DNA from: Eubacteriales bacterium
GTDB lineage: Bacteria > Bacillota > Clostridia > Oscillospirales > CAG-272
NCBI GenBank assembly: GCA_045633625.1
Contig: JAZQYP010000065.1
Location: 135,665 to 199,664, forward strand
Length of the DNA stretch: 64,000 bases
Direction: 5' to 3'
Shown here one piece after another: positions 4,786 through 39,939 of the stretch; the first letter of the stretch is position 1; every line of letters begins with the position of its first letter. The translations under genes were made by a program, and so were the position numbers. The notes beneath the pieces are model-generated. The model made no database searches. It had not been told where the DNA came from and saw only the letters and a program-made list of their open reading frames with translations.

Positions 4786-6273
4786 ATGAAAATAACTCTA
4801 AGAATTTTGTCGCTCTTCCTTGCGCTGGTTATGCTTTCATCCTGCTTTGTAGCATGTAATAACGAAAGCACACCGGAGGAAAAGGAAACAGAGGCTAGCG
4901 TTGCAGATACGACCGAAGCGGTAGATGATGGCTCGCTTGAGGTTATTGATTGGGGTGGTGAGCTCTACACGATCCTTGGACGTGATGGCGGTGCTGCCAG
5001 CCAGTTTACAAACTTTGAGGTTGGCTACGATGAGCTTCCCTTTGACGTTGTTGGACAGGCTGTATACAAGAGAAACGAGGCTCTTAAGAACAAGTATAAT
5101 TTCAGAGTAGTGCAGAATCTTGTCAGCGACACAAATTCGACGGCACAGGTAGCATACGAGTCAGGAGACGATCTTTACGATCTCGTTATCTACCGTCCCG
5201 CAGCAGTACAGGCACACGCACAGAGTGGATATCTTCTCAATATTGCTGACCTTGAGCACGTAAATCTTGAGCACGATAGCTGGTATCAGGACGTTAATGC
5301 AGAGCTTACCATCGCTGATAAGCTCTACTACACGACCAACGATTTTCTCCTTCAGGATAAGCACAGATTCTGGTACTGCTTCTATAACAGAGGACTTGCA
5401 CAGGATCTCGGACTTGGATACTTCGAGGATATGGTCGATAACAACACCTGGACTCTCGAGAATGTGACCAAGCTCGTAAAGCAGGGATATGCAGATATAG
5501 ACAGTGAGGTCGGAGTATCTCAGGGCGACCGCTACGGACTTGCGTTTGGTGGCTATTTTACCTTTACCGTATTTGCGTTCAGCGCAGGCTTCCGTGTAAC
5601 CGAGAAGGATAACAACAACCTGCCTCAGCTCGTTGGAGCAACAGATAAGGCGATCAACACTCTCGATGCCGTTTTTGGCTTGACAGAGAGCACGGGAACC
5701 TGGGCACGTGCCAAGCATAACGTTACGACCGACGACGGACACGAGGAGGTAATGTTCAAGCGCGGGCAGGTAGTGCTTCTTCAGGCATTCACATCCTTTA
5801 TTGATTTCTTCCTTATGGACGACACGGGTATAGCGTACGGTGCACTTCCTAACCCCAAATTCGATTCGGATCAGGAAAATTATTACGTATTCCCGAACGT
5901 AGATTTCGGAAGCTTCCTTGCGGTTCCTTACACCGTTGGCGACGAGGAATTTGCAGGATATGCTCTCGAGGCGATCACAGAGGAGTCGACTGACACCTCC
6001 TACACTGCTTACATCGACACAAAGTGTAAATACCAGGATGCTTACGACGAGGACTGCGCAAGAATGCTCGACCTCTGCTTTAGCAGCTGTACATACGACA
6101 TAGGAAGCTTCTGCAACTTCGGCGGACTTTATGCGTCGCTCCACACGGGTGGAAACACTCAGTACGGTCTCGCAGGACTTGGTAGTGCAAACTTCTATAA
6201 GAGATATTTTGATACGTACAAGAAGGCGGCACAGTCTGACATCGACGAGCTGATCGAAAGCTATAGCAAATAA
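4786..6273 (+). CDS. SBP-like lipoprotein, paralogue 1 (LplA-type family-1 solute-binding protein fold inferred)
   Basis: 495 aa. Signal peptide + lipobox (LSSCFVAC). It is collinear with the next three ORFs. Motifs: WGGELYTILGRDG, DVVGQAVYKRNE. RBS is ggaggg. Confidence 0.7.
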   Translation: MKITLRILSLFLALVMLSSCFVACNNESTPEEKETEASVADTTEAVDDGSLEVIDWGGELYTILGRDGGAASQFTNFEVGYDELPFDVVGQAVYKRNEALKNKYNFRVVQNLVSDTNSTAQVAYESGDDLYDLVIYRPAAVQAHAQSGYLLNIADLEHVNLEHDSWYQDVNAELTIADKLYYTTNDFLLQDKHRFWYCFYNRGLAQDLGLGYFEDMVDNNTWTLENVTKLVKQGYADIDSEVGVSQGDRYGLAFGGYFTFTVFAFSAGFRVTEKDNNNLPQLVGATDKAINTLDAVFGLTESTGTWARAKHNVTTDDGHEEVMFKRGQVVLLQAFTSFIDFFLMDDTGIAYGALPNPKFDSDQENYYVFPNVDFGSFLAVPYTVGDEEFAGYALEAITEESTDTSYTAYIDTKCKYQDAYDEDCARMLDLCFSSCTYDIGSFCNFGGLYASLHTGGNTQYGLAGLGSANFYKRYFDTYKKAAQSDIDELIESYSK

Positions 6274-6288
6274 AATTCTTCACCACTT

Positions 6289-6321
6289 GGGGCACTTCCT
6301 CGGAAGTGCCCCTTTTGTTTT
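6289..6321 (+). terminator. rho-independent terminator
   Basis: ggggcacttcc..ggaagtgcccc followed by ttttgtttt. Confidence 0.85.
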
Positions 6322-6460
6322 GCTCAAAATGTGAAGAAGGGAACCGAAAACCAAAAATGAGCCCCGAAAAATTTTCGTAATTAATCACTTTTGTTCTTGA
6401 CATTATGAGTCGCGTGTGGTAAAATTATACTCGGTAAATTTTATATTTATGGAGGAAAAA

Positions 6461-7963
6461 ATGAAAACAACAGTAAGAATTTTGTCGCTTTTGCTTGCTC
6501 TTGTTATGCTCGCTTCTTGTTTTATAGCTTGTAATAACAATAGCACGCCCAACGATAAGGAATCTGATACTGACGTTGCAGGTACTACAGGCTCCGACGT
6601 GCAGGGGGATGACGGCTCTCTCGAGGTCATCGACTGGGGTGGAGAGCTCTACACAGTTCTCGGACGTGACGGCGGTGGTGCCACCCAGTTTACAAGCTTT
6701 GAGGTAGGTTACGATGAGCTTCCTTTCGACGTTGTAGGTCAGGCAGTCTACAAGAGAAATGAGGACATCAAGAACAAGTATAACTTTAAGGTTGTACAGA
6801 ATCTTGTAAGCGAGACGAGCTCGACGGCTCAGATCGCGTACGAGTCGGGAGACGATCTTTATGATCTCGTTATCTATCGTCCTAATATGGTTCAGTCTCA
6901 CGCACAGAGTGGATACCTTCTTAACATTGCAGACCTTGATTACGTAAATCTTGAGCATGACAGCTGGTATCAGGACGTAAACGCAGAGCTCACCATTGGT
7001 GACAAGCTCTACTACACGACAAACGATTTCCTTCTTCAGGATAAGCATCGTTTCTGGTACTGCTTCTATAACAGAGGACTTGCTGCTGACCTTAATCTCG
7101 GATATTTCGAGGATATGGTTGACAACAATACTTGGACTATAGAAAACGTAACCAAGCTTATTAAAGACGGTTATGCTGACGTTGACGCAACCGTGGGCAG
7201 ATCCAACGGAGACCGTTACGGTCTTGCATACCAGGAGTACTTCACCTTCCCCGTATTTGCATTTAGTGCAGGCTTCCGTATAACTGAGAAGGACAACAAC
7301 AACTATCCTCAGCTCGTTGGTGCTACTGATAAGGCCATCAATACTCTTGATGCAGTGTTCGGTCTTATGAATAACAACGGAACCTGGGCTCAGCAGAAGG
7401 AGGATCCTTCCTTTAGTGATAGTAACGGACATCCCGAGGTTATGTTTAAGCGCGGACAGGTAGTGCTTCTTCAGGCATTCACATCCTTTATCGACTTCTT
7501 CCTTGCGGATGACACAGGAATCGCATACGGTGCACTTCCTAACCCCAAGCTTGACGCTGAGCAGGAGAACTATCACGTATTCCCGAACGTTGGAAACGGA
7601 TGCTTCCTTGCAGTTCCTTATACAGTAGGTGACGAAGAGTTCGCAGGCTACGCACTCGAGGCTATCACAGAGGAGTCTACCGACACATCCTACACCGCAT
7701 ATATCGATACCAAGTGTAAGTATCAGGATGCATACGATGAGGACTGTGCAAGAATGCTTGACCTTTGCTTCAGTAGCTGTACTTACGATATAGGTACGTT
7801 CTGCGACTTTGGCGGTCTTTATTCTGCTCTCTATAGTGGAGGACAGAAGAATGGCGGTCTTGCAGGTCTTGGTAATGCAAGCTTCTATAAGAGATATTTC
7901 GATACTTATAAGAAGGCAGCACAGGCGGAAATTGACGAGCTTATTGAGGCATACGCAGAATAA
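6461..7963 (+). CDS. SBP-like lipoprotein, paralogue 2
   Basis: 500 aa starting at MKTTVRILS (GGAGG lies 5 nt upstream; the ORF-track start at 6416 is rejected). Lipobox is LASCFIAC. TTGACA-17-TAAAAT lies upstream at ~6397-6425. Confidence 0.7.
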   Translation: MKTTVRILSLLLALVMLASCFIACNNNSTPNDKESDTDVAGTTGSDVQGDDGSLEVIDWGGELYTVLGRDGGGATQFTSFEVGYDELPFDVVGQAVYKRNEDIKNKYNFKVVQNLVSETSSTAQIAYESGDDLYDLVIYRPNMVQSHAQSGYLLNIADLDYVNLEHDSWYQDVNAELTIGDKLYYTTNDFLLQDKHRFWYCFYNRGLAADLNLGYFEDMVDNNTWTIENVTKLIKDGYADVDATVGRSNGDRYGLAYQEYFTFPVFAFSAGFRITEKDNNNYPQLVGATDKAINTLDAVFGLMNNNGTWAQQKEDPSFSDSNGHPEVMFKRGQVVLLQAFTSFIDFFLADDTGIAYGALPNPKLDAEQENYHVFPNVGNGCFLAVPYTVGDEEFAGYALEAITEESTDTSYTAYIDTKCKYQDAYDEDCARMLDLCFSSCTYDIGTFCDFGGLYSALYSGGQKNGGLAGLGNASFYKRYFDTYKKAAQAEIDELIEAYAE

Positions 7964-7977
7964 TCATATTAACATTT

Positions 7978-8005
7978 GGGCGCTCCCTACGGGGCGCCCT
8001 TTTTA
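7978..8005 (+). terminator. rho-independent terminator
   Basis: gggcgctccc-tac-ggggcgccc followed by ttttt. It is homologous to the terminator at 9705. Confidence 0.85.
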
Positions 8006-8202
8006 ATTGCGCTATTTTGTGATTTTGGCAATATCAATTAGAGCTTTGTTTAGTGATAGTCATCAAGTCTTGGTTCGTTTTGCAACAATTCAAATTGTGG
8101 CTTTTGTGATAAATAGACAAAAAACTTTGTGTAATTTATACATTGAAAAAAAGAATCAACTGTCGTATAATATATTTATAATTAGGTTTAATGGAGGAAA
8201 AT

Positions 8203-9690
8203 ATGAAAATTACAGTAAGAATTTTATCGCTTATGCTTGCTCTTGTCATGCTTGCTTCTTGCTTTATAGCTTGTAATGACGATAACAAGCCCGACGATAA
8301 GGACTCCGATACCGTTGTAGATACAACGGGTGGGGAGACTTTGGATGACGGATCTCTCGAGGTTATCAATTGGAGCGGAGAGACCTATACCATTCTCGGC
8401 CGAGACGGAAACGGCCGTACACAGTTTGACAGCTTTGAGGTAGGCTACGACGAGCTTCCCGTAGACGTAGTAGGACAGGCGGTTTATAAGAGAAACGAGA
8501 CAATAAAGAATAAGTATAACTTCAGTGTTGTTGGAGTATTTTCGACTGAGGTTAGTGATACGGCTCAGGTCGCATATGAGTCGGGAGACGACCTTTACGA
8601 TCTTGTAATATACCGTAATTCTGCGGCTCAGGCGCACGCACAAAACGGATATCTTCTTAATATTGCAGATCTTAAGTATATCAATCTTGAGCACGACAGC
8701 TGGTATCAGGAAGTAAACAATGAGCTTACTATCGGAGATAAGCTTTACTATACTACAAACGACTTTTTGCTTCAGGATAAGCATAGATTCTGGTATTGCT
8801 TCTATAACAGAGGACTTGCCGCTGACCTTAACCTCGGATATTTTGAGGATATGGTTGATAACAACACGTGGACTATCGAGAACGTTACAAAGCTCGTAAA
8901 GCAGGGATATGCAGACGTCGATGCGACTGTAGGCAGATCTGCTGGCGACAGATACGGATTTGCGTTCCAGGAGTATTATACTTTCCCCGTAATCGCGTTT
9001 AGTGCCGGCTTCCGAATCACCGAAAAGGATAACAATAATTACCCGAAGCTTATCGGCGCTAACGATCAGTCGATCAATAAGCTTGACACAGTTTTTGAAT
9101 TCCTCTATAATACCGGTTCGTGGTGTCAGCAAAGAGAGGATCCTGCTTTTAATAACAAGGATGGTGAGCCCGAGCTTATGTTTAAGCGCGGACAGGTCGT
9201 TCTTCTTCAGGCGTTTACGTCCTTTATAGACTACTTCCTTTCGGATGATATGGTTTTCGAGTACGGCGCACTTCCTAACCCCAAGTACGATGAGGAGCAG
9301 GAAAATTATTATGTCTTCCCGAACATCGGAAACGGAAGCCTTATCGCAGTTCCTTACACAGTTATGGACGAGGAGTTCGCAGGCTATGCTCTTGAGGCAA
9401 TTACCGAGGAATCCACCGATACGTCATATACCGCATATATAGATACGAAATGTAAGTATCAGGATGCATACGACGAGGACTGTGCAAGAATGCTTGACCT
9501 TTGCTTCAGCAGCTGTACGTACGATATAGGAACCTTCTGTAACTTTGGTCAGCTTTTTGGAGGCCTTTACAGCGGACAGGGAAGCCTTGCATATCTTGGC
9601 AACGCAAATCTTTATAAGAGATATTTTGACACTTATAAGAAGGCGGCGCAGGCAGATATTGACGAGGTTATTGCAGCTTACGCAGATTAA
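8203..9690 (+). CDS. SBP-like lipoprotein, paralogue 3
   Basis: 495 aa starting at MKITVRILS (GGAGG RBS). TTGAAA-17-TATAAT lies upstream at ~8143-8171. Confidence 0.7.
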   Translation: MKITVRILSLMLALVMLASCFIACNDDNKPDDKDSDTVVDTTGGETLDDGSLEVINWSGETYTILGRDGNGRTQFDSFEVGYDELPVDVVGQAVYKRNETIKNKYNFSVVGVFSTEVSDTAQVAYESGDDLYDLVIYRNSAAQAHAQNGYLLNIADLKYINLEHDSWYQEVNNELTIGDKLYYTTNDFLLQDKHRFWYCFYNRGLAADLNLGYFEDMVDNNTWTIENVTKLVKQGYADVDATVGRSAGDRYGFAFQEYYTFPVIAFSAGFRITEKDNNNYPKLIGANDQSINKLDTVFEFLYNTGSWCQQREDPAFNNKDGEPELMFKRGQVVLLQAFTSFIDYFLSDDMVFEYGALPNPKYDEEQENYYVFPNIGNGSLIAVPYTVMDEEFAGYALEAITEESTDTSYTAYIDTKCKYQDAYDEDCARMLDLCFSSCTYDIGTFCNFGQLFGGLYSGQGSLAYLGNANLYKRYFDTYKKAAQADIDEVIAAYAD

Positions 9691-9704
9691 TTATATTGAC
9701 GTCA

Positions 9705-9731
9705 GGGCGCTCCCTATGGAGCGCCCTTTTT
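9705..9731 (+). terminator. rho-independent terminator
   Basis: gggcgctccc-tat-ggagcgccc followed by ttttt. Confidence 0.85.
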
Positions 9732-9895
9732 GATCGCTTTTAGCGAGCTATCAGGTGTTGTTTTATTTTGCAATAAGTTGAGTTGTTTTTTTGTGGTATT
9801 TGAACAAACAACTTTGTATATTTTGCGTATTGAAAAGAAAAAATGGCTGCTGTATAATTATAATATATTTATTATAATTTTTGGTGGAGGAAGAT

Positions 9896-11392
9896 ATGAA
9901 GACAACACTAAAAGCTTTGTCGCTCCTGCTCGCCCTCGTTATGCTCGCTTGCAGCTTTGTAGCTTGCGGCGATACGAGGACACCTGACGACAAGGACTCT
10001 GATACCGTTGCAGGCACCACGGAGGACAACGTGAATGATGGTTCTCTTAAGGTCATAGATTGGGGCGGAGAGACCTATTCTATTCTTGGACGTGACGGAA
10101 ACGGCCGCTCACAATTTGATAACTTTGAGGTAGGCTACGACGAGCTTCCCGTTGATGTGGTGGGTATCGCAGTTTACAAGAGAAATGAAAACCTCAAGAA
10201 CAAATATAATTTCAAGGTAGAGCCTATCTTTTCAGTTGACGTTGCGGCTACCGCACAGGTGGCATATGAGTCGGGAGACGACCTTTACGATCTGGCTATC
10301 TACCGCCATAAGGACGTTCAGGCGCACGCACAGAGCGGATATCTTCTTAATATTGCTGATCTTGATCATATAAATCTTGATTATGAGTGTTGGTATCAGG
10401 ACGTAAACAAGGAGCTTACCATTGGCGATAAGCTTTATTATACGACTAACAACTTCTTGCTTCAGGATAAGCATAGATTCTGGTACTGCTTCTACAACAG
10501 AGAGATTGCGCGCGACCTTAACCTTGGATATTTCGAGGATATGGTCGATAACAACACGTGGACACTTGAAAACGTAACAAGGCTTACAAAGCAGGGATAT
10601 TCCGATAAGGACGGTGAGGCAGGCAGATCTCCGGAGGATCACTATGGCTACGGTGCACAGGAATATTACGCAATAGCGGCCCTTGCTTTCGGTGCAGGCT
10701 TCCGTCTTACCGAAAAGGACAATTATAATATTCCTAAGCTTGTTGGAGCAACCGATCACGCTATAAATATTCTTGACAAGGTATTTGGTCTTATGTACCA
10801 CAATGCGTCGTGGATCACCCCGAGAGAGGATCCCGGTGTTGCTAACAAGGCTTCAGAGGCTGAGCTTATGTTTAACGAGGGAAGACTTTTGTTGCTTTCT
10901 ACCTTCACGTCCTCTATCGACTATTTCCTTTCGGACGATGAGTTCTTTGAATACGGAGTGCTTCCCAACCCCAAGATTGATTCCGAGCAGGAGAACTACT
11001 ATAGCTTCACACACGTTACAACAGGTAGCTTCCTTGCAGTTCCTTACACAGTTATGGACGAGGAGTTTGCAGGCTATGCTCTTGAGGCGATCTCGGAGGA
11101 GTCTACCGATACCTCCTACACAGCCTACATAGACACCAAGTGTAAGTATCAGGATGCTTATGATGAGGACTGTGCAAGAATGTTTGACCTTTGCTTTAGA
11201 AACTGTACGTACGATATTGGTGCATTCTGCGACTTTGGTGGAATTTTCTCGGCTCTTTGGAGAGGAGAGGATGGCGGTGGCGGTCTTGCAGCGCTTGGAA
11301 AGGGAAGCATTTATAAGAGATTTTACGATACTTATAAGAAGGGTGCACAGTCTGATATCGACGAGATAGTTGAAAAATATTCTAAAGAGTAA
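9896..11392 (+). CDS. SBP-like lipoprotein, paralogue 4 (most divergent)
   Basis: 498 aa starting at MKTTLKALS (GGTGGAGG RBS). Lipobox is LACSFVAC. TTGAAA-17-TATAAT lies upstream. Confidence 0.7.
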   Translation: MKTTLKALSLLLALVMLACSFVACGDTRTPDDKDSDTVAGTTEDNVNDGSLKVIDWGGETYSILGRDGNGRSQFDNFEVGYDELPVDVVGIAVYKRNENLKNKYNFKVEPIFSVDVAATAQVAYESGDDLYDLAIYRHKDVQAHAQSGYLLNIADLDHINLDYECWYQDVNKELTIGDKLYYTTNNFLLQDKHRFWYCFYNREIARDLNLGYFEDMVDNNTWTLENVTRLTKQGYSDKDGEAGRSPEDHYGYGAQEYYAIAALAFGAGFRLTEKDNYNIPKLVGATDHAINILDKVFGLMYHNASWITPREDPGVANKASEAELMFNEGRLLLLSTFTSSIDYFLSDDEFFEYGVLPNPKIDSEQENYYSFTHVTTGSFLAVPYTVMDEEFAGYALEAISEESTDTSYTAYIDTKCKYQDAYDEDCARMFDLCFRNCTYDIGAFCDFGGIFSALWRGEDGGGGLAALGKGSIYKRFYDTYKKGAQSDIDEIVEKYSKE

Positions 11393-17075: not shown

Positions 17076-17130
17076 TTGACAAATATACACAATAGATGTA
17101 TAATATTCACATATTAACGAATATATATTC
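17076..17130 (+). promoter_or_regulatory. proximal argG promoter plus downstream palindrome
   Basis: TTGACA (17076-81), 17-nt spacer, TATAAT (17099-104). The perfect palindrome GAATATATATTC lies at 17119-17130. Confidence 0.55.
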
Positions 17131-17145
17131 ACGAGAGGTGCAATT

Positions 17146-18372
17146 ATGGAAAAGAAGGATATCAAAAAGGTTGTTCTTGCGTACTCGGGCGGACTTGATA
17201 CGTCCATCATCATTCCGTGGCTCAAGGAGAATTATAATAACTGCGAGGTCATCGCTGTAAGCGGTAACGTAGGTCAGGCGGACGAGCTTGAGGGTCTTGA
17301 GGAAAAGGCTATAAAGACGGGTGCGTCGAAGTGCTACGTTGAGGATCTTACCGAGGAATTTATTGACGATTACGTAATCCCCACCGTTATGGCGGGTGCT
17401 AAATATGAGGAGTACCTTCTCGGTACCTCCTTTGCTCGTCCCGTTATTGCAAAGCGTATCGTAGAGATCGCAAAGGCAGAGGGCGCTGACGCTATCTGCC
17501 ACGGTTGTACGGGTAAGGGAAACGATCAGGTTCGTTTCGAGCTTACAATTAAAGCATTCGCACCCGATATGCACATTATCGCGCCTTGGCGTGAGTGGGA
17601 CATCAAGTCCCGTGAGGAGGAGATAGAGTATGCGGAGGCGCATAACGTTCCTCTTAAGATAAACCGTGAGACTAACTACTCGAAGGATAAGAATATGTGG
17701 CACCTCTCTCACGAGGGACTCGATCTTGAGGATGCAGGAAACGAGCCTCTTTACGAGAAGGAGGGCTTTCTTGAGATGGGCGTATCTCCCATTCAGGCAC
17801 CCGACGAGCCTACGTACATAACTCTTGATTTTGAGGCGGGTCGTCCCGTTGCCTTTAACGGCGAGAAGATGAGTGCTAAGGATATCATACTTGAGCTCAA
17901 TAAGGTTGGCGGAGCTAACGGAATAGGACTTCTCGATATCGTCGAGAACCGTCTTGTAGGTATGAAGTGCCGCGGTGTTTACGAGACTCCCGGCGGAGCT
18001 ATCCTTTACTTTGCTCACAACTACCTTGAGACTCTTTGTCTTGATAAGTACACCGCACACAAGAAGGCGGAGCTTTCTATAACCTTTGCTGATCTCGTTT
18101 ATAACGGTCAGTGGTTCACACCTCTTCGTGAGGCTCTTTCGGCGTTCGTTGATAAGACTCAGGAGAACGTAACCGGCAAGGTTAGAATCAAGCTTTACAA
18201 GGGTAATATGATAAAGGCAGGAGCTTGGAGCGATTACTCTCTCTACAGCGAGGAGATCGCAACCTTTGGTGAGGACAACGTATACAATCAGGCAGATGCT
18301 GCCGGATTTATCAACCTCTTTGGTCTTCCCATAAAGGTTCAGGCTCAGGTCAATAAGAAGAACGGAAAATAA
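17146..18372 (+). CDS. argG: argininosuccinate synthase
   Basis: [22 protein letters not shown]; 408 aa. Confidence 0.95.
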
Positions 18373-18434: not shown

Positions 18435-19808
18435 ATGGAAAAAATGTGGTCGGGAAGGTTTTCTAAGGCGCTTGACAGCGTTGCAGACGACTTCAATTCT
18501 TCAATTCACTTCGACAGCAGAATGTATGAGCAGGACATAAAGGGCTCGCTCGCGCACGCATCGATGCTTGCTATGCAGGGGATAATCACCGAGAGTGATC
18601 TTGATGCGATAAGCGAGGGTCTTAAGTCAATACTCGACGATATAAAGAGTGGAGTGCTTGAGATAGATATGGCGGCTGAGGACATACATATGTTCGTTGA
18701 GGGAGAGCTTACGAAGCGCATCGGTGACGTCGGCAAAAAGCTCCATACAGCGCGTAGCCGTAACGATCAGGTGGCACTTGATATAAGACTTTATCTGCGC
18801 GATAAGTGTGATGAGATAGTAGAGCTCACAAAGGAGCTTATCGTGGCAGTGACCGACAAGGCAGAGGAAAATAAGACGGTAATTATGCCGGGATATACTC
18901 ATCTGCAAAGAGCACAGCCGATAATATTCGGTCATCAGCTTATGGCATATTCTATGATGCTCCTTCGCGATATAGGCAGAATTGAGGACGCAAAGAAGAG
19001 AATGAATCTCTCGCCCCTCGGCTCGTGCGCGCTTGCGGGAACGACGTATAACACAAACAGAGAGCTTGTTGCAGAGAAGCTCGGCTTTGACGGAATCACA
19101 CTCAACAGTATTGACGGAGTTTCAGATAGAGACTTCTGCCTTGAGCTTATGAGCGCATTCTCGATACTTATGATGCACCTCTCGCGCTTTTCGGAGGAGA
19201 TCATCCTCTGGTCGAGCTGGGAATTCAAGTTCATAGAGCTTGACGACGCGTACACCACGGGCTCGTCCATTATGCCCCAGAAGAAGAATCCCGATATGGC
19301 GGAGTTAGTTAGAGGTAAGACGGGCAGAGTTTACGGCGATCTTATGGCGCTTCTCACGACCCTTAAGGGACTCCCCCTTGCATACAACAAGGATATGCAG
19401 GAGGATAAGGAGGCAATTTTTGATGCGGTCGATACCGTAATTATGTGTCTTAAGGTCTTTACACCTATGATCGCAACGATGAGTGTCCGTGCCGATAATA
19501 TGTACCGCGCGGCGCAGAATGGATTTATAAACGCGACCGATCTTGCTGACTACCTCGTGAAGCGTGGAATGCCCTTCAGGAGCGCGTATAAGGTGGTCGG
19601 TCAGATAGTGGCGCGTTGCATTGAAGAAAAATGCGTGCTTGACGATCTGTCTCTTGAAAAATACAGAGAGCACAGTGAGCTTTTCGAAAATGATCTTTAC
19701 GAGGATATCTCACTTGAGACCTGCGTAAAAAAGAGAATTTCGGCAGGCGGCACGTCGCAGGAGTCGGTCGAGGCGCAGATAGTATACGTAAGAAACGAAT
19801 TAAAGTAA
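18435..19808 (+). CDS. argH: argininosuccinate lyase
   Basis: MWSGRF, GYTHLQRAQP, GSSIMPQKKNPD. The start could be 18435 or 18444. Confidence 0.95.
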   Translation: MEKMWSGRFSKALDSVADDFNSSIHFDSRMYEQDIKGSLAHASMLAMQGIITESDLDAISEGLKSILDDIKSGVLEIDMAAEDIHMFVEGELTKRIGDVGKKLHTARSRNDQVALDIRLYLRDKCDEIVELTKELIVAVTDKAEENKTVIMPGYTHLQRAQPIIFGHQLMAYSMMLLRDIGRIEDAKKRMNLSPLGSCALAGTTYNTNRELVAEKLGFDGITLNSIDGVSDRDFCLELMSAFSILMMHLSRFSEEIILWSSWEFKFIELDDAYTTGSSIMPQKKNPDMAELVRGKTGRVYGDLMALLTTLKGLPLAYNKDMQEDKEAIFDAVDTVIMCLKVFTPMIATMSVRADNMYRAAQNGFINATDLADYLVKRGMPFRSAYKVVGQIVARCIEEKCVLDDLSLEKYREHSELFENDLYEDISLETCVKKRISAGGTSQESVEAQIVYVRNELK

Positions 19809-19840: not shown

Positions 19841-20746
19841 ATGAAACATTTGCTGAAGCTTCAGGATCTTAGCGAGCAGGAGATACTTGATATCCTTGAT
19901 CTTGCGGACAAGCTGAAGTATGAGAGAAAAAACGGAATCAAGCACCACGTTCTTGAGGGAAAGACACTCGGAATGATCTTTGAGAAGTCGTCGACGAGAA
20001 CGAGAGTTTCCTTTGAGGTCGGTATGTACGATCTCGGAGGCACGGCGCTCTTCCTTTCATCGCGCGATCTTCAGATAGGACGCGGCGAGCCCGTGGAGGA
20101 TACTGCAAGAGTTCTTTCGCGTTACCTTGACGGAATAATGATAAGAACCTTTGATCAGGAGGAGGTCGAGTCTCTCGCTTCCTGCGGTCAGATCCCGATA
20201 ATCAACGGACTTACCGACTACTGTCATCCCTGTCAGGTCCTTGCCGATCTTATGACTATAAGAGAGCATAAGGGCGAGATAGCGGGCAAGAAGCTCTGCT
20301 ACATCGGTGACGGAAATAATATGACAAACTCCCTTATCGTTGGCGGTATCAAGATGGGAATGAGCGTGTCTGTCGCTTGTCCCAAGGGATATGAGCCCGA
20401 TGCGAAGATAATGGAGTGGGCAGCGGCTACGGGAAGATTTACTTGCACAGATAACGTACTTGAGGCTGCAAAGGATGCAGACGTCCTTTATACTGACGTA
20501 TGGGCTTCCATGGGTCAGGAGGAAGAGGCAGAAGCACGTAAGAAAGTATTCCGTGGTTACCAGATTAACAGTGACGTTATGGCAGTTGCGGCTAAGGACG
20601 CAATGGTGCTCCACTGTTTGCCTGCGCACAGAGGCGAGGAGATAACCGCTGACGTGCTCGAGGCTCACGCTGATGAAATTTTTGACGAGGCAGAAAACAG
20701 GCTTCATGCGCAGAAGGCAGTGCTTGTCAAGTGTCTCGGAGAGTGA
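19841..20746 (+). CDS. argF: ornithine carbamoyltransferase
   Basis: SSTRTRVSFE, HPCQVLADL, HCLPAHRGEE. GGAGG RBS. Confidence 0.9.
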   Translation: MKHLLKLQDLSEQEILDILDLADKLKYERKNGIKHHVLEGKTLGMIFEKSSTRTRVSFEVGMYDLGGTALFLSSRDLQIGRGEPVEDTARVLSRYLDGIMIRTFDQEEVESLASCGQIPIINGLTDYCHPCQVLADLMTIREHKGEIAGKKLCYIGDGNNMTNSLIVGGIKMGMSVSVACPKGYEPDAKIMEWAAATGRFTCTDNVLEAAKDADVLYTDVWASMGQEEEAEARKKVFRGYQINSDVMAVAAKDAMVLHCLPAHRGEEITADVLEAHADEIFDEAENRLHAQKAVLVKCLGE

Positions 20747-20755
20747 GGTTAATAT

Positions 20756-21817
20756 ATGAAAAAAGCTTATCTTGTGCTTGAAGACGGTCACGTCTTCGAG
20801 GGATTTTCCTTCGGTGCCGAGGGAAAATGTGTAGGCGAGCTCGTTTTTAACACGCAGACGGTGGGATATAACGAAGCGCTTACAGACCCCGCTTATTATG
20901 GGCAGATCATTATGCAGACCTTCCCGATGATAGGCAATTACGGAGTTATTGAGGAGGATTTTGTCGGTACACCGCGCGTCAGCGGATATGTGGTGCGTGA
21001 GTGGTGCGAGAAGCCCTCGAACTTCAGAAGTCAGTATGACATCGATAAGTTCTTAAAGGATCACGGAATCCCCGGAATTTATGGCGTCGACACAAGACAG
21101 ATCACAAAGATCCTTCGCGAGAACGGCGTTATGAATGCTTGCATCTCTTCTGAAATTCCTTCAAATTTCGATGAGATCAAGACCTTTAGGATCAAGGACG
21201 CGGTCGCAGCTTGCTCGGTTACCGAGGAGAAGGTGTACGAGGCTGAGGGCGACAAGAAATACGAGGTAACACTCGTTGATTACGGCTCACATACCGATGC
21301 CGTGAAGGCGCTTACCGAGAGAGGTTGCCGTGTAACTGTAGTTCCTTACAATACGACGGCTGATGCGATACTCGCAAAGAAGCCCGACGGTGTTCTTCTT
21401 TCAAACGGTGCGGGCGACCCTGCTGAGAACGGCGCTTGCATCGGTGAGATAAAGGCTCTTATGGGCAAGTGCGCTATGTTCGGCATATCCCTCGGACACG
21501 AGCTTATGGCTCTCGCCGATGGCGGTATGACGTACAAGCTCAAGTACGGTCATAGAGGCTCTAATCAGCCTGTACGTGAGGCAGAGGGAACAAAGACCTA
21601 TATTACCGCGCAGAACCACGGCTATGCAGTAGCTTCCGATAGCACGGCTCACGGTAAGGTAAGCTATATCAACGTAAACGATAAGAGCTGTGAGGGAATT
21701 GAGTACGAGGGACTTCGTGCTTTCTCGGTACAGTTCTTGCCCGATAACTGGAAGGGCCAGAGAGGTACGGCCTTCCTTTATGACAAATTTATAGAAATGA
21801 TGGGAGGAGAGAGATAA
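20756..21817 (+). CDS. carA: carbamoyl-phosphate synthase small subunit homologue with degenerate glutaminase triad
   Basis: Collinear with CarA throughout (LEDG..F.G, VFNT...GY.E.LTDP.Y, TAQNHGYAV). However, FGICLGHQ reads FGISLGHE and QGHPE reads QFLPD. Confidence 0.85.
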   Translation: MKKAYLVLEDGHVFEGFSFGAEGKCVGELVFNTQTVGYNEALTDPAYYGQIIMQTFPMIGNYGVIEEDFVGTPRVSGYVVREWCEKPSNFRSQYDIDKFLKDHGIPGIYGVDTRQITKILRENGVMNACISSEIPSNFDEIKTFRIKDAVAACSVTEEKVYEAEGDKKYEVTLVDYGSHTDAVKALTERGCRVTVVPYNTTADAILAKKPDGVLLSNGAGDPAENGACIGEIKALMGKCAMFGISLGHELMALADGGMTYKLKYGHRGSNQPVREAEGTKTYITAQNHGYAVASDSTAHGKVSYINVNDKSCEGIEYEGLRAFSVQFLPDNWKGQRGTAFLYDKFIEMMGGER

Positions 21818-24800
21818 TGCCGCTTAATAAGGATATTAAAAAGGTACTCGTAATTGGCTCCGGCCCCATCGTCATCGGTCAGGCGGCAGAGTTTGACTAC
21901 GCGGGTGCGCAGGCGTGCCGCGTGCTCAAGGAGGCAGGACTCAACGTAGTACTCGTTAACTCTAACCCTGCTACCATTATGACCGACAGCGCGCTCGCTG
22001 ACGAAATATATCTTGAGCCTCTTACTGTTGAGACGGTAAAGAGAATAATCGAGAAGGAAAAGCCCGACTCGATCCTCGCAGGACTTGGAGGACAGACAGG
22101 ACTTACCATCGCTATGCAGCTCAACCACGAGGGCTTCCTCAAGAGCCACAACGTGCGTCTTCTCGGTACAAATGCCGAGGCAATAGATAAGGCAGAGGAC
22201 CGTCAGCTCTTCAAGGACACTATGGAAGAGATCGGTCAGCCCTGTATTCCTTCCGATATCGCAAACGACGTACATACCGCACTTGTTATCGCGGGTAAGA
22301 TAGGCTATCCTGTAATCATTCGTCCCGCATTCACACTTGGTGGCGCGGGCGGCGGTGTTGCCAACAACCCCGAGGAGCTTGCGATCGTCGCAAAGACGGG
22401 ACTTGACGCATCTCCCATAAGCCAGATACTCGTTGAGAAATACATCTTTGGATGGAAAGAGATCGAGTTCGAGACGATGCGTGACTCGGCAGGAAACGTA
22501 ATCGCCGTTTGTAGCATGGAGAACTTTGACCCCGTTGGAATCCACACGGGTGACTCTATCGTTGTAGCTCCCGCACTCACACTTTCGCCTAAGGAGTATC
22601 AGATGCTCCGTACCGCATCCCTTGAGATAATCTCGGCGCTCGGTATCGTCGGCGGATGTAACTGTCAGTTCGCGCTCAATCCGAATAGCTTTGAGTATGC
22701 CGTAATCGAGGTTAACCCCAGAGTTTCTCGTTCCTCGGCACTTGCAAGTAAGGCAACGGGATACCCGATAGCTAAGATCACATCAAAGATAGCTCTCGGT
22801 TATACGCTTGACGAGATAATGAACGATATTACAGGCAAGACCTGTGCGTGCTTTGAGCCCGCAGTTGACTACGTCGTTGTCAAGATGCCCAAGTGGCCCT
22901 TTGAGAAGTTCACCAATGCCAGCCGTGTGCTCGGCACACAGATGAAGGCAACGGGCGAGGTAATGTCGATAGGCACCTCCTTTGAGGCGGCTATGATGAA
23001 GGCGGTAAGAGGAGCAGAGATATCTCTTGATACTCTCAATGCCGCTCCCATATCGGACAAGCCCCTCCTTGAGAGACTTGCTATTTCCGACGACCGCAGA
23101 CTCTTCACTGTTTTTGAGGCACTCAAGGCAGGTATTGATATAGAAACGATCTATAACATAACGCGTATCGACCGTTGGTTCCTCAATAAGCTTATGAATC
23201 TCGTTGACTTTGAGAACGATCTCATTGAGAACGGACTTGGCCTTGAGGAGTACAGAAAGGGAAAGAAGCTCGGTTACACCGATAAGGTGCTTACTCGCCT
23301 TGGCGGTAACGAGGATATCCCGAAGCTTCGCGCTTCCTACAAGATGGTTGACACTTGTGCCGCTGAGTTTGACGCAAAGACACCTTACTTCTACTCGACC
23401 TATGATAAGGACTGCGAGTCTCGCACCTTCTCAAGAAGTGGCAAGCCCGTAATCCTTGTTCTTGGCTCAGGACCTATCCGTATAGGACAGGGAATTGAGT
23501 TCGACTACTCGTCAGTTCACTGCGTATGGGCACTCAAGAAGCTCGGCTACGACGTTGTTATCGTCAACAATAACCCCGAGTCCGTTTCTACCGACTACGA
23601 TACGGCAGACAGACTTTATTTTGAGCCTCTCACTCCCGAGGACGTTATGAACATCATCGAGATAGAGAAGCCCGTTGGAGTCGTTGTTGCCTTTGGTGGA
23701 CAGACGGCAATAAAGCTTACCAAGTTCCTCGATGATAACGGAATCAAGATCCTCGGTACTTCAGCAGAGGGAATTGACACCGCAGAGGACAGAGAAAAGT
23801 TCGATGCGCTCCTTGAAAAGTTCAATATCAAGCGTCCCGCAGGTGCCGGAGTTATGACTACAAACGAGGCACTTGAGGCCGCTAATAGCATCGGCTACCC
23901 CGTATTGCTTCGTCCCTCTTACGTTATAGGTGGACAGAATATGTCTATCGTTTATAACGATACAGAGGTAAGAGCATATATGACGAGAATTCTCTCGACA
24001 GGCATTGAGAATCCCGTTCTCGTTGACAAGTACATGAAGGGAACAGAGCTTGAGGTTGACGTAATCTCCGACGGTAAGGACGTTCTTATCCCCGGAGTTA
24101 TGCAGCACGTTGAGCGCGCGGGAGTTCACAGCGGTGACTCTATCGCGGTATATCCTCCCTTCAACATAAACGACAAGATGCTTGAGACGGTTGTCGAGTC
24201 CTCGACAAAGCTCGCTTTGGCGCTTGGAACAAAGGGACTTGTAAATATTCAGTACCTCATCTGGCGCAACGAGCTTTACGTTATCGAGGTTAACCCCCGT
24301 GCGTCGAGAACGATTCCTTACATCAGTAAGGTAACGGGAGTTCCTATGGTCGACCTTGCAACTAAGGTTATGATAGGCGAGCCTCTTGCTGATCTCGGCT
24401 ACGGCACAGGTCTTTACAAGACTCCTCCTTACTTTGCGGTTAAGGTTCCCGTATTCTCCTTCGAGAAGCTTACAGATGCTAACTCCTACCTTGGACCTGA
24501 GATGAAGTCCACGGGTGAGGTGCTTGGTCTTGGAAGCAATCTTCAGGAGGCAATTTTCAAGGGAATGACATCTGCAGGCTTCAAGATAAAGGTTCCCACT
24601 CCCGGTTCTGACGTCGGTGTGTTCATCAGCGTTGACGAGCATGATCTCAAGGAGATCGTATCCCTTGCAAAGAAGCTCGACGACCTTGGAATGAAGATCT
24701 ACGCGACAAGAGACACGGCACGCGCTATCGAGGGACTCGGTATCGACGTTCGTACGGTCAGAGGCATCAATGATAGCCGTGATGCGTTCGATCTTATCGA

Positions 24801-25851
24801 GGACGGACTTATCAGCTATATCGTTTACACGGGCGCGCTCTTTAGCACAACGATAGACGATTATATCGCGCTTCACCACAAGGCGCTTCAGCACTCGGTC
24901 GCTTGCCTTACGTCGCTTGATACGGCAAATGCACTTGCAGACGTTATTGCAAGCCGTTACAACCAGCAGAACACCGAGCTCGTTGACATCAACGATATGA
25001 GAAGCGAGCCTCGTAAGCTTAAGTTCTCTAAGATGCAGGGAACGGGAGACGACTATATCTTCATCGAGAACTTCGAAGGCAAGATCACTTGTCCCGAGTC
25101 GCTCTGCCTTACCTTCTGTGACAGACATTACGGTATTGGCGGTAACGGAATCGTGCTTATGGAGAAGTCGGACGTGGCTGATGCTAAGATGCGAATCTTC
25201 AACCGCGACGGTAGTGAAGGCAAGATGGCAGGTAACTGTATCCGCTGCGTTGGTAAGTACCTCTACGATAATAAGCTTGTTGAGAGCGACAAGATGACTA
25301 TCGAGACGGGAAGCGGTGTTAAGAGACTCAAGGTCTACACGCGTAATGGCAAGGTGACCTCGGTAAGAGTTCATATGGGTGCTGCAAGTATTCTTACAAA
25401 GAATATTCCTACTACCATCAAGGAAGAGAGAATCGTTAACTATCCTCTCACCGTTGGTGGCAAGGATTATAAGATAACCTGCGTTTCGACGGGTAACCCC
25501 CACTGCGTAGTATTTACCGATTACGTTGACGGCGTCAAGGTAAAGCAGATCGGTCCTATGTTCGAGAATGCAAGCGTATTCCCTGAGAGAATAAACACAG
25601 AGTTCATTCGTGTTGTCAACCCCACCACCATCAAGATGCGTGTCTGGGAGAGAGGTAACGGAGAGACACTCGCGTGCGGTACAGGAGCTTGCGCGGCAGT
25701 CGTTGCGGCTGTTGAGAACGGCTTCTGCAAGATGGGCGAGGACATAACCGTTAAGCTTCGCGGCGGTGACCTTATCGTAAACTATACAGAGGATGACGTG
25801 ACCCTCACGGGTAACGCCGAGCTTGTGTATAGCGGCGAGATTGAGATCTAA
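21817..25851 (+). CDS. carB: carbamoyl-phosphate synthase large subunit fused in frame to a DapF-like (diaminopimelate epimerase fold) domain
   Basis: 1344 aa. Residues 1-~1060 are a full CarB: two GSGP(I)xIGQ..EFDY ATP-grasp halves and an MGS-like tail. Residues 1061-1344 carry KMQGTGDDY, STGNPHCVVF, ERGNGETLACGTGACA. The start overlaps the carA stop (TAATG). Confidence 0.9.
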   Translation: MPLNKDIKKVLVIGSGPIVIGQAAEFDYAGAQACRVLKEAGLNVVLVNSNPATIMTDSALADEIYLEPLTVETVKRIIEKEKPDSILAGLGGQTGLTIAMQLNHEGFLKSHNVRLLGTNAEAIDKAEDRQLFKDTMEEIGQPCIPSDIANDVHTALVIAGKIGYPVIIRPAFTLGGAGGGVANNPEELAIVAKTGLDASPISQILVEKYIFGWKEIEFETMRDSAGNVIAVCSMENFDPVGIHTGDSIVVAPALTLSPKEYQMLRTASLEIISALGIVGGCNCQFALNPNSFEYAVIEVNPRVSRSSALASKATGYPIAKITSKIALGYTLDEIMNDITGKTCACFEPAVDYVVVKMPKWPFEKFTNASRVLGTQMKATGEVMSIGTSFEAAMMKAVRGAEISLDTLNAAPISDKPLLERLAISDDRRLFTVFEALKAGIDIETIYNITRIDRWFLNKLMNLVDFENDLIENGLGLEEYRKGKKLGYTDKVLTRLGGNEDIPKLRASYKMVDTCAAEFDAKTPYFYSTYDKDCESRTFSRSGKPVILVLGSGPIRIGQGIEFDYSSVHCVWALKKLGYDVVIVNNNPESVSTDYDTADRLYFEPLTPEDVMNIIEIEKPVGVVVAFGGQTAIKLTKFLDDNGIKILGTSAEGIDTAEDREKFDALLEKFNIKRPAGAGVMTTNEALEAANSIGYPVLLRPSYVIGGQNMSIVYNDTEVRAYMTRILSTGIENPVLVDKYMKGTELEVDVISDGKDVLIPGVMQHVERAGVHSGDSIAVYPPFNINDKMLETVVESSTKLALALGTKGLVNIQYLIWRNELYVIEVNPRASRTIPYISKVTGVPMVDLATKVMIGEPLADLGYGTGLYKTPPYFAVKVPVFSFEKLTDANSYLGPEMKSTGEVLGLGSNLQEAIFKGMTSAGFKIKVPTPGSDVGVFISVDEHDLKEIVSLAKKLDDLGMKIYATRDTARAIEGLGIDVRTVRGINDSRDAFDLIEDGLISYIVYTGALFSTTIDDYIALHHKALQHSVACLTSLDTANALADVIASRYNQQNTELVDINDMRSEPRKLKFSKMQGTGDDYIFIENFEGKITCPESLCLTFCDRHYGIGGNGIVLMEKSDVADAKMRIFNRDGSEGKMAGNCIRCVGKYLYDNKLVESDKMTIETGSGVKRLKVYTRNGKVTSVRVHMGAASILTKNIPTTIKEERIVNYPLTVGGKDYKITCVSTGNPHCVVFTDYVDGVKVKQIGPMFENASVFPERINTEFIRVVNPTTIKMRVWERGNGETLACGTGACAAVVAAVENGFCKMGEDITVKLRGGDLIVNYTEDDVTLTGNAELVYSGEIEI

Positions 25852-25861
25852 ATAAAAAACA

Positions 25862-25892
25862 AACCGTGTGTCCGAAAGGACACACGGTTTTT
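25862..25892. terminator. bidirectional rho-independent terminator
   Basis: aaccgtgtgtcc-gaaa-ggacacacggtt followed by ttt, with an A-run upstream. Confidence 0.9.
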
Positions 25893-34014: not shown

Positions 34015-36405
34015 TTATGCTCTGAGGTTGATGCCAAGCTGCTTGTCAAGAGCGGTGAGTATCTTATCGGATACCTTGTCTGCTTCTTCAACTGTAAGTG
34101 TTCTGTCAGCCGCGCGGAGCACTACGCGGATAGATACCGACTTCTTGCCCTCGCCGATCTGGTGACCTGTGTATATGTCGAAGAGGTAAACGTCCTCAAC
34201 GAGCTTACCGCCTGCGGTTGCCATGATCTTCTCGATCTTGCCGACCTCGAGATCCTTGTCGCAAACAAAGGAGAAGTCACGAGTCGAAGCGGGGAACTTG
34301 GGAAGTGCCTTGAAGTGCTTCTCGGTGGTCGAGAGAGCGAATATCTTGTCAAAGTCAAGCTCTGCCGCATAAACGGGAATGGAGATTCCGTAGTTCTGCA
34401 TAACGAGAGGATGAACCTGACCGAGAATTGCAACTGTGGTATCACCAACCACTACCTTTGCACATCTTCCGGGGTGGTAAGAGGGGTTATCGGTGACAGC
34501 CACGTATTCAGCACCCTTGATAGAAGCGAGACTCAAGATATTCTCGCAAACACCCTTGATGCTGTAGAAGTCAACCTTACCGTACATACCGACGGTAGTT
34601 ACCTTGTTCTCGTCGGGAAGTGTGTCAGCACCCGTGGGGATATAAACGGAAGCATTCTCAAAGAGAGCTACGTTCTCGTTGCTGAGGTTTACGTTTCTCG
34701 CAATTACCTCAAGGAGAGAGGGAAGCGCAGTAGTTCTCATAACGCTTGTATCCTCGCCCAAGGGGTTGGAGATAACGATAGACGTGCGGAGAGCGCTATC
34801 AGCGGGAAGTCTTACCTTGTCGTAATACTTAGGGCTGATGAAGGAGAACGTCTGGATCTGCGAGATGCCCATTCCGATCATCGCATTCTCAACGTTTACC
34901 TCAAACTGCTGCTTCTTGGATCTGCCACCGCGAGTGGTCTCTGCCTTGATGTTGGTAGAGGGGATCTTGTTGTAGCCCCAAATTCTTGCTACCTCCTCGG
35001 CAATATCGTTCATACAGCCAAGGTCAACTCTGAAGGAGGGAACGGTTATCTTGCCGTCCTCAACCTTGCAGTCAAGGGAGGTAAGGACAGACTTCATATA
35101 ATCGGCATCAATATCGGTGCCAAGGAACTTGTTTATAACGTCGGGATTAAGTGTAAGAACCGTAGGCTCGCGCTTTGTGGGGTAAACGTCGATCATTCCG
35201 CCAACGACCTCACCTGCGCCAAGAAGCTCGATAAGCTCGCAAGCGCGCTCAAGTGCGCCGTAGCAGTTTTCTGCGTCAAGACCCTTCTCAAATCTTGCAG
35301 AGCTTTCGGTACGCATACCGTTCTTCTTTGCGGTAACACGAACCGAGCCGCCGTTGAAGCAAGCAGACTCAAATACAACTGTGGTCGTACCGTCGGTGAT
35401 CTCACTGTTCTCGCCGCCCATAACACCCGCAAGTGCTACTGCCTTTTCCTTATCGGCAATAACGAGCATTGTGGAGTCAAGAGTATGCTCCTGAGAGTCA
35501 AGGGAGATGAACTTCTCGCCGTCAGCCGCGCGGCGAACGTTTATAGCCGATCCGCCAAGGCAAGCGTAGTCAAACGCGTGCATAGGCTGACCGTACTCAA
35601 GCATTACGTAGTTAGTAATATCAACGATGTTGTTGATGGGTCTTACGCCACTCGCGCGAAGTCTCATACGGAGCCAAAGAGGCGAGGGAGCTACCTTAAC
35701 GTTCTTTACAACTCTTGCCGCGTATCTGTAGCAGAGGTCGGGAGCGGATATCTGGACAGAGAGGTAATCCTTAACGTCACCTGTGCCTTCAGCCTTTACA
35801 ACGGGAGTGTGGAGCTTAAGCTCACGATCAAAGGAAACTGCAGTCTCACGTGCAAGACCGATAACAGAGAGGCAGTCGGGGCGGTTTGAGGTGATCTCAA
35901 ACTCAACAACGCTATCGCGGAGCATAAGTGCCTCGCGGATATCCTTGCCTATCATAGCCTCAAAGCTCTGGTCGAGTATGAGGATTCCATCGGTTGCGGC
36001 ACCGGGCATATCGTGCTCAGTAAGTCCAAGCTCGGCGATAGAGCAGAGCATTCCGTGTGATTCAACGCCACGGAGCTTTCCCGACTTGATAACAACTCCA
36101 CCGGGGAGCTTTGCAACAGGGAGTGCCGCGGGAACTATCGCGCCCTCAAACACGTTCTGCGCGCCGGTAACTATCTGCGTAGTCTTACCTTCGCCAATAT
36201 CCATCTGGCAGATCTGAAGGTGGTCACTGTTCTCGTGGGGAGCGATTGAGATGATCTTTGCTACAACGACGTTTTCAACGTCCTCTGCAAGCATCTCAAA
36301 GCCCTCGACCTTAGAGCCTGTGTCGGTCATTCTGTCGGAATACGCTTTATTATCTATATCGCTGACGTCAACGAAGTCAGCAAGCCAATTTCTTGATAAA
36401 TTCAT
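34015..36405 (-). CDS. pheT: phenylalanine--tRNA ligase beta subunit
   Basis: 796 aa. Architecture is tRNA-binding N-domain, B3/4, B5 and a C-terminal FDX-ACB-like domain. It lies directly downstream of pheS. Confidence 0.95.
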   Translation of the reverse strand: MNLSRNWLADFVDVSDIDNKAYSDRMTDTGSKVEGFEMLAEDVENVVVAKIISIAPHENSDHLQICQMDIGEGKTTQIVTGAQNVFEGAIVPAALPVAKLPGGVVIKSGKLRGVESHGMLCSIAELGLTEHDMPGAATDGILILDQSFEAMIGKDIREALMLRDSVVEFEITSNRPDCLSVIGLARETAVSFDRELKLHTPVVKAEGTGDVKDYLSVQISAPDLCYRYAARVVKNVKVAPSPLWLRMRLRASGVRPINNIVDITNYVMLEYGQPMHAFDYACLGGSAINVRRAADGEKFISLDSQEHTLDSTMLVIADKEKAVALAGVMGGENSEITDGTTTVVFESACFNGGSVRVTAKKNGMRTESSARFEKGLDAENCYGALERACELIELLGAGEVVGGMIDVYPTKREPTVLTLNPDVINKFLGTDIDADYMKSVLTSLDCKVEDGKITVPSFRVDLGCMNDIAEEVARIWGYNKIPSTNIKAETTRGGRSKKQQFEVNVENAMIGMGISQIQTFSFISPKYYDKVRLPADSALRTSIVISNPLGEDTSVMRTTALPSLLEVIARNVNLSNENVALFENASVYIPTGADTLPDENKVTTVGMYGKVDFYSIKGVCENILSLASIKGAEYVAVTDNPSYHPGRCAKVVVGDTTVAILGQVHPLVMQNYGISIPVYAAELDFDKIFALSTTEKHFKALPKFPASTRDFSFVCDKDLEVGKIEKIMATAGGKLVEDVYLFDIYTGHQIGEGKKSVSIRVVLRAADRTLTVEEADKVSDKILTALDKQLGINLRA

Positions 36406-37434: not shown

Positions 37435-37462
37435 TTTATATTTCCTTTCTCAAATTATAATC

Positions 37463-39724: not shown

Positions 39725-39939
39725 CGTTTGGAACTCCTCCTGAATTGGTTGGTACATACAATATAATATAAGAAAATATTATTCAAGATATTATACCACC
39801 TTTTTTACATAAAATCAATCAGAATAATGGGAATGTTTCAAGTTTCGGCTATCTGCACAATTATGGAAGAAACAAGTTGTGCATATTTCCCACAAACTCG
39901 AAGAAAGATAAGAGAAAAAGGGGTTTTGGAGGGCAAAAA

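Follow-up and report, generated by a model that had tools for sequence, protein, structure and literature searches.

A 64,000-nucleotide stretch of DNA from an Eubacteriales bacterium (GTDB lineage Oscillospirales, CAG-272; assembly GCA_045633625.1, contig JAZQYP010000065.1, positions 135,665 to 199,664; hereafter, the window) encodes a small subunit of carbamoyl phosphate synthetase (CPS) with a degenerate glutaminase triad, designated CarA*. Sequence comparison and structure prediction suggest that CarA* is a well-folded pseudo-glutaminase kept as the obligatory partner of the large subunit CarB, and that the CarA*–CarB complex is most likely an ammonia-dependent CPS (estimated probability, roughly 0.7). 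The gene occupies positions 20756 to 21817 of the window (forward strand; 353 amino acids) and was characterized with Pfam, phmmer searches of all PDB sequences, MAFFT alignment, NCBIfam models, and an AlphaFold 2 (AF2) model. CarA* contains a CPSase_sm_chain domain (residues 6–130; 166 bits) and a class-I glutamine amidotransferase (GATase) domain (residues 173–348; 121 bits), and residues 3 to 351 match NCBIfam NF009475 at 391 bits (cut-off 221); TIGR01368 is also passed (382 bits; cut-off 307). In domain content and fold, CarA* belongs to the CarA homology family from end to end, as a preliminary description of this DNA, made from the letters alone, had proposed. The best PDB match was Escherichia coli CarA (E = 2e-73), the top-scoring sequence being the engineered C269S mutant (1c30_B), with no gaps around either catalytic motif.

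Both motifs that supply the triad are altered in CarA*. FGISLGHE (21479–21502, forward strand) lies on E. coli FGICLGHQ, so that Ser245 (codon tcc, 21488–21490) occupies the position of Cys269 and Glu249 (gag, 21500–21502) that of Gln273. QFLPD (21731–21745, forward strand; cag ttc ttg ccc gat) lies on E. coli QGHPE, with Leu328 (ttg, 21737–21739) at His353 and Asp330 (gat, 21743–21745) at Glu355. The preliminary description had read both motifs and their coordinates exactly, and scoring of the triad columns in the alignment, a check it had proposed, placed no Cys or His at the catalytic positions. The Cys-His-Glu triad that marks a glutamine-hydrolyzing CPS small subunit (EC 6.3.5.5) is thus replaced throughout, by Ser245, Leu328, and Asp330. 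At E. coli positions 47, 202, 273, 359, 360, and 362, CarA* has Ala, His, Glu, Gly, Gln, and Gly, departing from the set S47, K202, Q273, G359-P360, and D362 that is 95–100% conserved in 88 canonical CarAs. In effect, CarA* is a natural C269S/H353L/E355D/Q273E multiple mutant of E. coli CarA, a protein for which H353N is also among the engineered variants.

The altered motifs are shared by an entire clade. Among the 120 closest 90%-identity clusters, drawn from 5.8 billion proteins, the 45 nearest (P0001–P0044 and P0103; 65–92% identity) all read QF[L/I/N]PD, with His353 gone and Asp at 355, and canonical FGICLGHQL...QFHPE sequences start only at 64% identity or less to CarA*. A sequencing error, against which the preliminary description had already argued, an assembly artefact, or a misalignment is ruled out by these comparative data: four substitutions in two motifs align without gaps and are seen again in independent NCBI, ENA, JGI, and Logan assemblies. 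Position 269 in the CarA* clade is Gly in 50%, Ser in 28%, Cys in 20%, and Ala in 2%. In a neighbor-joining tree, basal clade members still have Cys269, and its replacement occurred on several separate occasions, consistent with the His having been lost first, in the clade ancestor, and the nucleophile having decayed afterwards. Variation of the nucleophile site among Gly, Ser, Cys, and Ala indicates that the site is no longer under catalytic constraint, and the clade-wide pattern at this position is hard to reconcile with surviving hydrolytic chemistry. Continued glutamine hydrolysis by altered chemistry, e.g., with a nucleophilic Ser245 assisted by a different general base, is exceedingly improbable. 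A Ser is a possible nucleophile in principle and His272 and His312 are still conserved nearby, but Gly or Ala takes the place of this Ser in close relatives, such that no nucleophile is conserved, and His353 and Glu355 are both replaced. The E. coli C269S variant traps glutamine unhydrolyzed. That variant is in the PDB as an engineered mutant structure (1c30), as is E. coli CarAB with CarA G359F (1m6v). The earlier proposal that this subunit probably cannot hydrolyze glutamine is supported by the replaced triad, the drifting nucleophile, and the relaxation of glutamine-site and tunnel-loop residues described below.

Compared with the nearest genome (L001; 82% amino acid identity), carA* exhibited a dN/dS of 0.069 with both CarA domains constrained, as against 0.020 for argG, 0.046 for argH, and 0.040 for argF. 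With an intact open reading frame (ORF) and this ratio, carA* does not have the properties of a pseudogene. The AF2 model, calculated with 60 homologues, had a mean predicted local distance difference test (pLDDT) score of 93.7 and template modeling (TM) scores of 0.92–0.93 to E. coli CarA (0.93 to 1c30_B) and 0.87–0.90 to the inactive N-terminal moiety of human CPS1. The triad has been lost, the loss is fixed across the clade with drift at the nucleophile, and purifying selection acts elsewhere in CarA*. The stop codon of carA* and the start codon of carB share one base (ATAATG), which implies coupled translation. A carA* that is a functionless, decaying relic, with CarB working alone like the orphan CarB2 of Bacteroides thetaiotaomicron, is very unlikely. 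The gene does evolve faster than its neighbors (dN of 0.125, vs 0.025–0.069 for argG, argH, and argF), and ammonium dependence has been proposed for an orphan CarB of B. thetaiotaomicron (PMC8121099). Set against a relic are an ORF that is intact in every relative running the full length of its contig, the dN/dS of ∼0.07, the confident fold, the coupling to carB, and the newly conserved motifs; the locus differs from a CarB-only CPS of the CarB2 or archaeal type in having a conserved carA* that is coupled to carB. The alternative raised in the preliminary description, a purely structural or allosteric CarA, is on the evidence of the dN/dS of 0.07, the intact fold, and the coupling to carB the other half of the same picture rather than a rival: CarA* would be retained as a scaffold and/or allosteric module of CarB.

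Constraint was compared site by site between 88 non-redundant canonical CarAs and 121 non-redundant CarAs without the Cys or His (dead CarAs), with relaxed sites defined by a conservation of at least 85% among canonical CarAs that is loosened among dead ones. The relaxed sites were S47, Y48, E71, K202, I205, N240, F266, I268, T283, S309, H353, E355, A356, G359, P360, D362, L366, and F367, which, by reference to E. coli structures, we take to group around the glutamine site and the loop that walls the ammonia tunnel at its exit from the small subunit. Mean conservation in the CarB-binding N-domain (0.59 dead vs 0.65 canonical) was less relaxed than in the GATase domain (0.52 vs 0.66). E. coli CarA has a triad and a G-P-x-D tunnel loop; CarA* has neither and instead carries a new conserved loop, NWKGQRGT (21746–21769, forward strand), in place of the canonical A-[CS]-x-G-P-x-D tunnel-wall loop (E. 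coli 356–363). Across the clade, [N/D]-W-[A/K]-G-[Q/E]-R-G-T replaces A-[C/S]-x-G-P-x-D-T, with Trp and Arg each at 96% and Gly and Thr each at 100%, and this new conservation reflects selection for something. Confidence of the AF2 model was lowest at the remodeled loop (block 331–340, pLDDT of 77).

The CarB encoded in the window (carB portion at 21817–25020, forward strand, of a longer gene at 21817–25851) retains all the tunnel and gate residues examined. In a comparison of 21 CarBs with a canonical CarA partner and 17 with a dead one, the residues I18, I20, A23, E25, E215, E217, E219, C232, T244, A251, N283, N301, R306, S307, L310, A311, and A314 (E. coli numbering) were invariant in all 38. 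Three of these, C232, A251, and A314, form the tunnel gate, conserved in human CPS1 as C648, A667, and A729 (PMC4655335). Only β258 and query position 919 separated the two groups: at β258, 95% of the CarBs with a canonical CarA had Asp and those with a dead CarA had Pro (as in the window), Ser, or Asn, and position 919 changed from Ala with canonical to Ser with dead partners. In addition, βR265 varied only among dead-partnered CarBs (Arg in 10, Lys in six, and Ser in one). Raushel and Holden reportedly perforated by mutation the tunnel wall formed by βR265, αP360, and αH361. In E. coli, blocking or perforating the tunnel costs the enzyme its activity with glutamine, a result that has been seen as fitting an alternative tunnel for free ammonia (PMC4655335).

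In the mechanism proposed here, CarA*–CarB would make carbamoyl phosphate from free NH3, bicarbonate, and two ATP, with NH3 as the presumed physiological nitrogen donor, and the product would feed the ornithine carbamoyltransferase (OTC) encoded just upstream in the same operon. NH3 could enter via the emptied glutamine pocket or the remodeled α356–363/β258 interface region and might then use the preserved CarB tunnel. The rumen and hindgut, from which the relatives come, are ammonia-rich, and such a habitat may have made the glutaminase dispensable. Several points weigh against ammonia dependence. Comparison of the columns of the 21 and 17 CarBs revealed no obvious change that would raise affinity for NH3; the Km for ammonia is poor in bacterial CPS, and high intracellular NH3 may be needed; and the link between dead CarAs and arg operons (below) would fit an arginine-dedicated paralogue beside a canonical CPS. 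Lastly, the pocket backbone motifs G241, G243, L270, N311, G313, and Y314 are still 98–100% conserved in the clade, and some ligand might therefore still bind CarA*. This last point bears on a refinement of the ammonia-dependent reading that is compatible with it and that we regard as unlikely, namely that CarA* is a ligand-sensing regulatory subunit that binds glutamine or a related molecule and tunes an NH3-dependent CarB. The pocket motifs SNG[AP]GDP, LGH, and QNHGY are 96–100% conserved in the clade, the new conserved loop evolved beside the glutamine site, and the GATase domain is itself under strong purifying selection (pN/pS of 0.157 vs L001). Binding of glutamine to E. coli C269S also stimulates the synthetase ATPase. 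On the other side, S47 and Q273, which we take to be glutamine contacts, are changed to Ala and Glu in CarA*, the pocket erodes further in other dead lineages (Ser at position 47 in 22%, Gly at 313 in 70%), and the conserved pocket motifs may be purely structural.

Degenerate CarAs are not confined to this clade. In a survey of 54 loci from GTDB species-representative genomes, 23 had degenerate triads in many residue combinations and 28 were canonical; a survey of relatives for the same substitutions had been suggested in the preliminary description. All survey loci are clostridial except three Treponemataceae-labeled contigs of metagenome-assembled genomes (MAGs), and gut MAGs from ruminants, rabbits, mice, or humans supplied the majority. 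An OTC-type gene lies directly upstream of 17 of the 23 dead CarAs, vs six of the 28 canonical ones. Among the top 150 representatives at 50% identity, drawn from 1.8 billion proteins, the Cys-His-Glu triad was present in only 44; over 100 had a degenerate triad, in which position 269 was mostly Gly and position 353 could be nearly any residue. This sample is biased to dead CarAs, because the query is itself one of them and because such sequences diverge more quickly. At least 23 triad state changes were needed to account for 210 sequences by a rough neighbor-joining and Fitch analysis with motif columns excluded, a count that is only indicative. Both orders of loss are represented: Cys first in P0076 and P0094 (Ser-His-Glu), and His first in P0051 (Cys-Val-Asp) and in 50%-identity representatives with Cys-Gln-Glu or Cys-Tyr-Asp. 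Judged from these triad states, loss of the triad is recurrent and has arisen repeatedly. No cultured organism with a dead CarA was found among the named matches, all of which are MAGs; in the two isolates recovered, Baileyella intestinalis and Mobilibacterium timonense, the CarA triad is canonical. A division of canonical and dead CarAs by pyrB vs argF neighbors was considered and rejected, since every neighboring transcarbamylase has the HCLP motif, which we take to mark OTCases rather than aspartate carbamoyltransferases, and there was no pyr-type context. Four loci (L010, L012, L015, and L035) have a second transcarbamylase type directly upstream of carA, 41–45% identical to ArgF of the window, with HCLP present and DAR[FY]NMG in place of DVWASMG, which might be an acetyl- or succinyl-ornithine-type enzyme.

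A DapF-like domain (25021–25851, forward strand; CarB residues ∼1069–1344) is fused in frame to the C terminus of CarB. It passes the DapF model TIGR00652 at 271 bits (cut-off 115). A two-base DapF has two catalytic Cys residues, Cys73 in CGNG and Cys217 in CG[ST]G, and here only the second is kept (Cys1287; ACGTGAC); Ala1138 (gca, 25228–25230; KMAGNCIRC) aligns with Cys73 of the solved DapFs 2otn, 9mro, and 3ejx. The first catalytic position is Ala in 110 of the 120 closest homologues and Cys in none of them. The domain is probably not a two-base epimerase, although it is annotated “diaminopimelate epimerase” or “CPS large subunit”, and the predicted holoenzyme carries a second catalytically altered module besides CarA*. 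Fusion of CarB to a DapF-like domain, with no stop between the parts, occurs in 31 of the 54 surveyed clostridial loci with canonical and dead CarAs alike (among L002–L050, e.g., L006 11079–15110 and L007 11070–15110), including those of the cultured B. intestinalis and M. timonense; no description of a CarB–DapF fusion was found in the literature. A broader scenario, held tentatively and at somewhat short of even odds, is that gut and rumen Clostridia have repeatedly, in apparently dozens of independent losses, made a CPS I-like, ammonia-dependent CPS with a pseudo-enzyme CarA; in the CarA* clade, W-x-G-x-R-G-T may be an entry port for external NH3, and the one-Cys DapF-like domain may be a new regulatory or ligand-binding domain of CPS.

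The predicted arrangement is reminiscent of vertebrate CPS I (EC 6.3.4.16), in which a glutaminase-like module derived from CarA likewise persists in inactive form, Ser replacing the Cys, and the tunnel gate of the synthetase is conserved. Human CPS1 is ammonia-dependent, carries Ser294 where the catalytic Cys would be, has a conserved gate, and takes NH3 from the medium (PMC4655335), which confirms the Cys-to-Ser parallel with mammalian CPS I drawn in the preliminary description. One feature of the CPS I type, the retention of a catalytically inactive glutaminase-like module, is shared by CarA*. The two systems differ in that CPS1 is a single fused polypeptide needing N-acetylglutamate, whereas carA* and carB are two separate, translationally coupled genes, with ORFs in different frames; in addition, the CPS1 triad lacks only the Cys (PMC4655335), and in CarA* the His and Glu are also replaced. 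Judging by its nearest relatives, canonical clostridial CarAs at 64% identity or less, CarA* has an origin independent of CPS I. With E. coli CarAB (CPS II; EC 6.3.5.5), CarA*–CarB shares the two-subunit organization, the folds, and the CarB residues. E. coli CarB alone is an ammonium-dependent CPS, as cited in PMC8121099. For CarA*–CarB, as for the orphan CarB2 (BT3866) of B. thetaiotaomicron, independence from glutamine is predicted in a gut bacterial CPS; the two differ in the small subunit, which CarB2 lacks altogether and which the window enzyme keeps in a non-catalytic form. A gut Bacteroides switches to the putatively ammonium-dependent CarB2 when ammonium is plentiful, paired with a choice of the ammonium-dependent Ddh over DapL/DapF (Liu et al., PMC8121099). 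A meso-diaminopimelate dehydrogenase gene (Ddh; DAPDH_C; ammonium-dependent meso-diaminopimelate route) lies at 490–1470 of locus L055, 9 kb upstream of its arg-car operon, and also in L056, echoing the ddh/carB2 pairing of B. thetaiotaomicron; Ddh was absent from the window and from loci other than L055 and L056. According to its abstract, a paper on the CPS III of Alcolapia fish reports a convergent evolutionary shift of substrate affinity towards ammonia, and the words “lacks the catalytic cysteine” are used once in that paper (PMC7657897); the fish enzyme differs from CarA*–CarB in being a eukaryotic, fused, urea-cycle enzyme.

No precedent for a bacterial CarA without the triad or for an ammonia-dependent one was found in the literature covered, which excludes subscription journals, so that an earlier mention is possible; nor did follow-ups on CarB2 provide a bacterial precedent. 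Bacterial CPS was classed as glutamine-dependent CPS II in a 2018 review (PMC6022934), and Liu et al. in 2021 stated that all eubacterial CPSs so far were glutamine-dependent, describing glutamine as the only donor in bacteria as a long-standing hypothesis (PMC8121099). What is new is most likely a convergent CPS I-like state in a two-subunit bacterial enzyme. If the broader scenario of repeated conversion in Clostridia is true, the view that all eubacterial CPSs depend on glutamine would be overturned and many database annotations would be wrong. Naming of dead CarAs as “glutamine-hydrolyzing” is a systematic annotation error. These proteins pass TIGR01368, and the NCBI name is attached to P0282 (MBQ8818577.1), with Gly at the nucleophile and Tyr at His353, and to P0271 (MBE5773706.1), with Gly at the nucleophile in a partial sequence that does not cover the His region. 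CPS is a textbook tunnel enzyme, and dead bacterial CarAs would provide a large natural series in which the step from CPS II to CPS I, so far studied only in vertebrates, was taken independently many times, allowing a direct test of the role of a dead small subunit and of the path of external ammonia to the carboxyphosphate site. Models of nitrogen flow in abundant uncultured gut and rumen Clostridia would also change, with arginine and perhaps pyrimidine nitrogen coming from free ammonia rather than from glutamine. If the genome has a second CPS, CarA*–CarB would be an arginine-dedicated ammonia CPS; if it has none, all carbamoyl phosphate would be ammonia-derived.

The gene order argG-argH-argF-carA-carB is bracketed by one promoter-like site and one terminator-like hairpin, all on the forward strand. 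The promoter-like site (17076–17104; TTGACA-17-TATAAT) matches the sigma-70 consensus at 12 of 12 positions, a consensus match only, and precedes argG (argininosuccinate synthase; 17146–18372; Pfam Arginosuc_synth and Arginosuc_syn_C), argH (argininosuccinate lyase; 18435–19808; Lyase_1 and ASL_C2), and argF (OTC, the consumer of carbamoyl phosphate; 19841–20746; OTCace_N and OTCace). The operon is closed by a bidirectional hairpin with a 13-bp stem (25861–25890), as read from the sequence. The ArgF ortholog of L001, 94% identical to ArgF of the window, has the STRTR, DxxxSMG, and HCLP motifs, and HCLP is also readable in the window ArgF. The position of carA next to carB is that of the CarA family and is the same in L055; the order ribF, argG, argH, argF, carA*, carB::dapF, eno, hom, and a DUF4364 gene is kept in L055 and L056, which are independent metagenome contigs. 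By tblastn, only the operon copies of carA and carB were found in the 64-kb window, and Pfam annotation of the rest of the window revealed no pyr genes, glnA, amt, or other CPS.

Several further features of the window were observed. On the forward strand, 528–2769 encodes a DUF1538 membrane protein (515 amino acids) followed, with a small overlap, by a 233-amino acid protein with a C-terminal P-II-like domain, which may be a nitrogen- or ion-related pair. An unrelated secreted ORF of 391 amino acids with no Pfam match (2942–4117) precedes four tandem paralogous ORFs (4786–11392, forward strand) of ∼500 amino acids and 67–82% mutual identity, each with a signal peptide and a lipobox-like LASCF motif and without a Pfam match at 1e-5. 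For a 1025-amino acid ORF at 54301–57378 (forward strand), Pfam likewise gave no family at 1e-5. On the minus strand, 37485–37710 contains a T-box leader (Rfam RF00230; 108.8 bits), just downstream of an SBP_bac_5 gene (37796–39757, minus strand) and upstream of pheT (34015–36405, minus strand); an ORF on the strand opposite the genes of this region (36460–37482) has no Pfam match.

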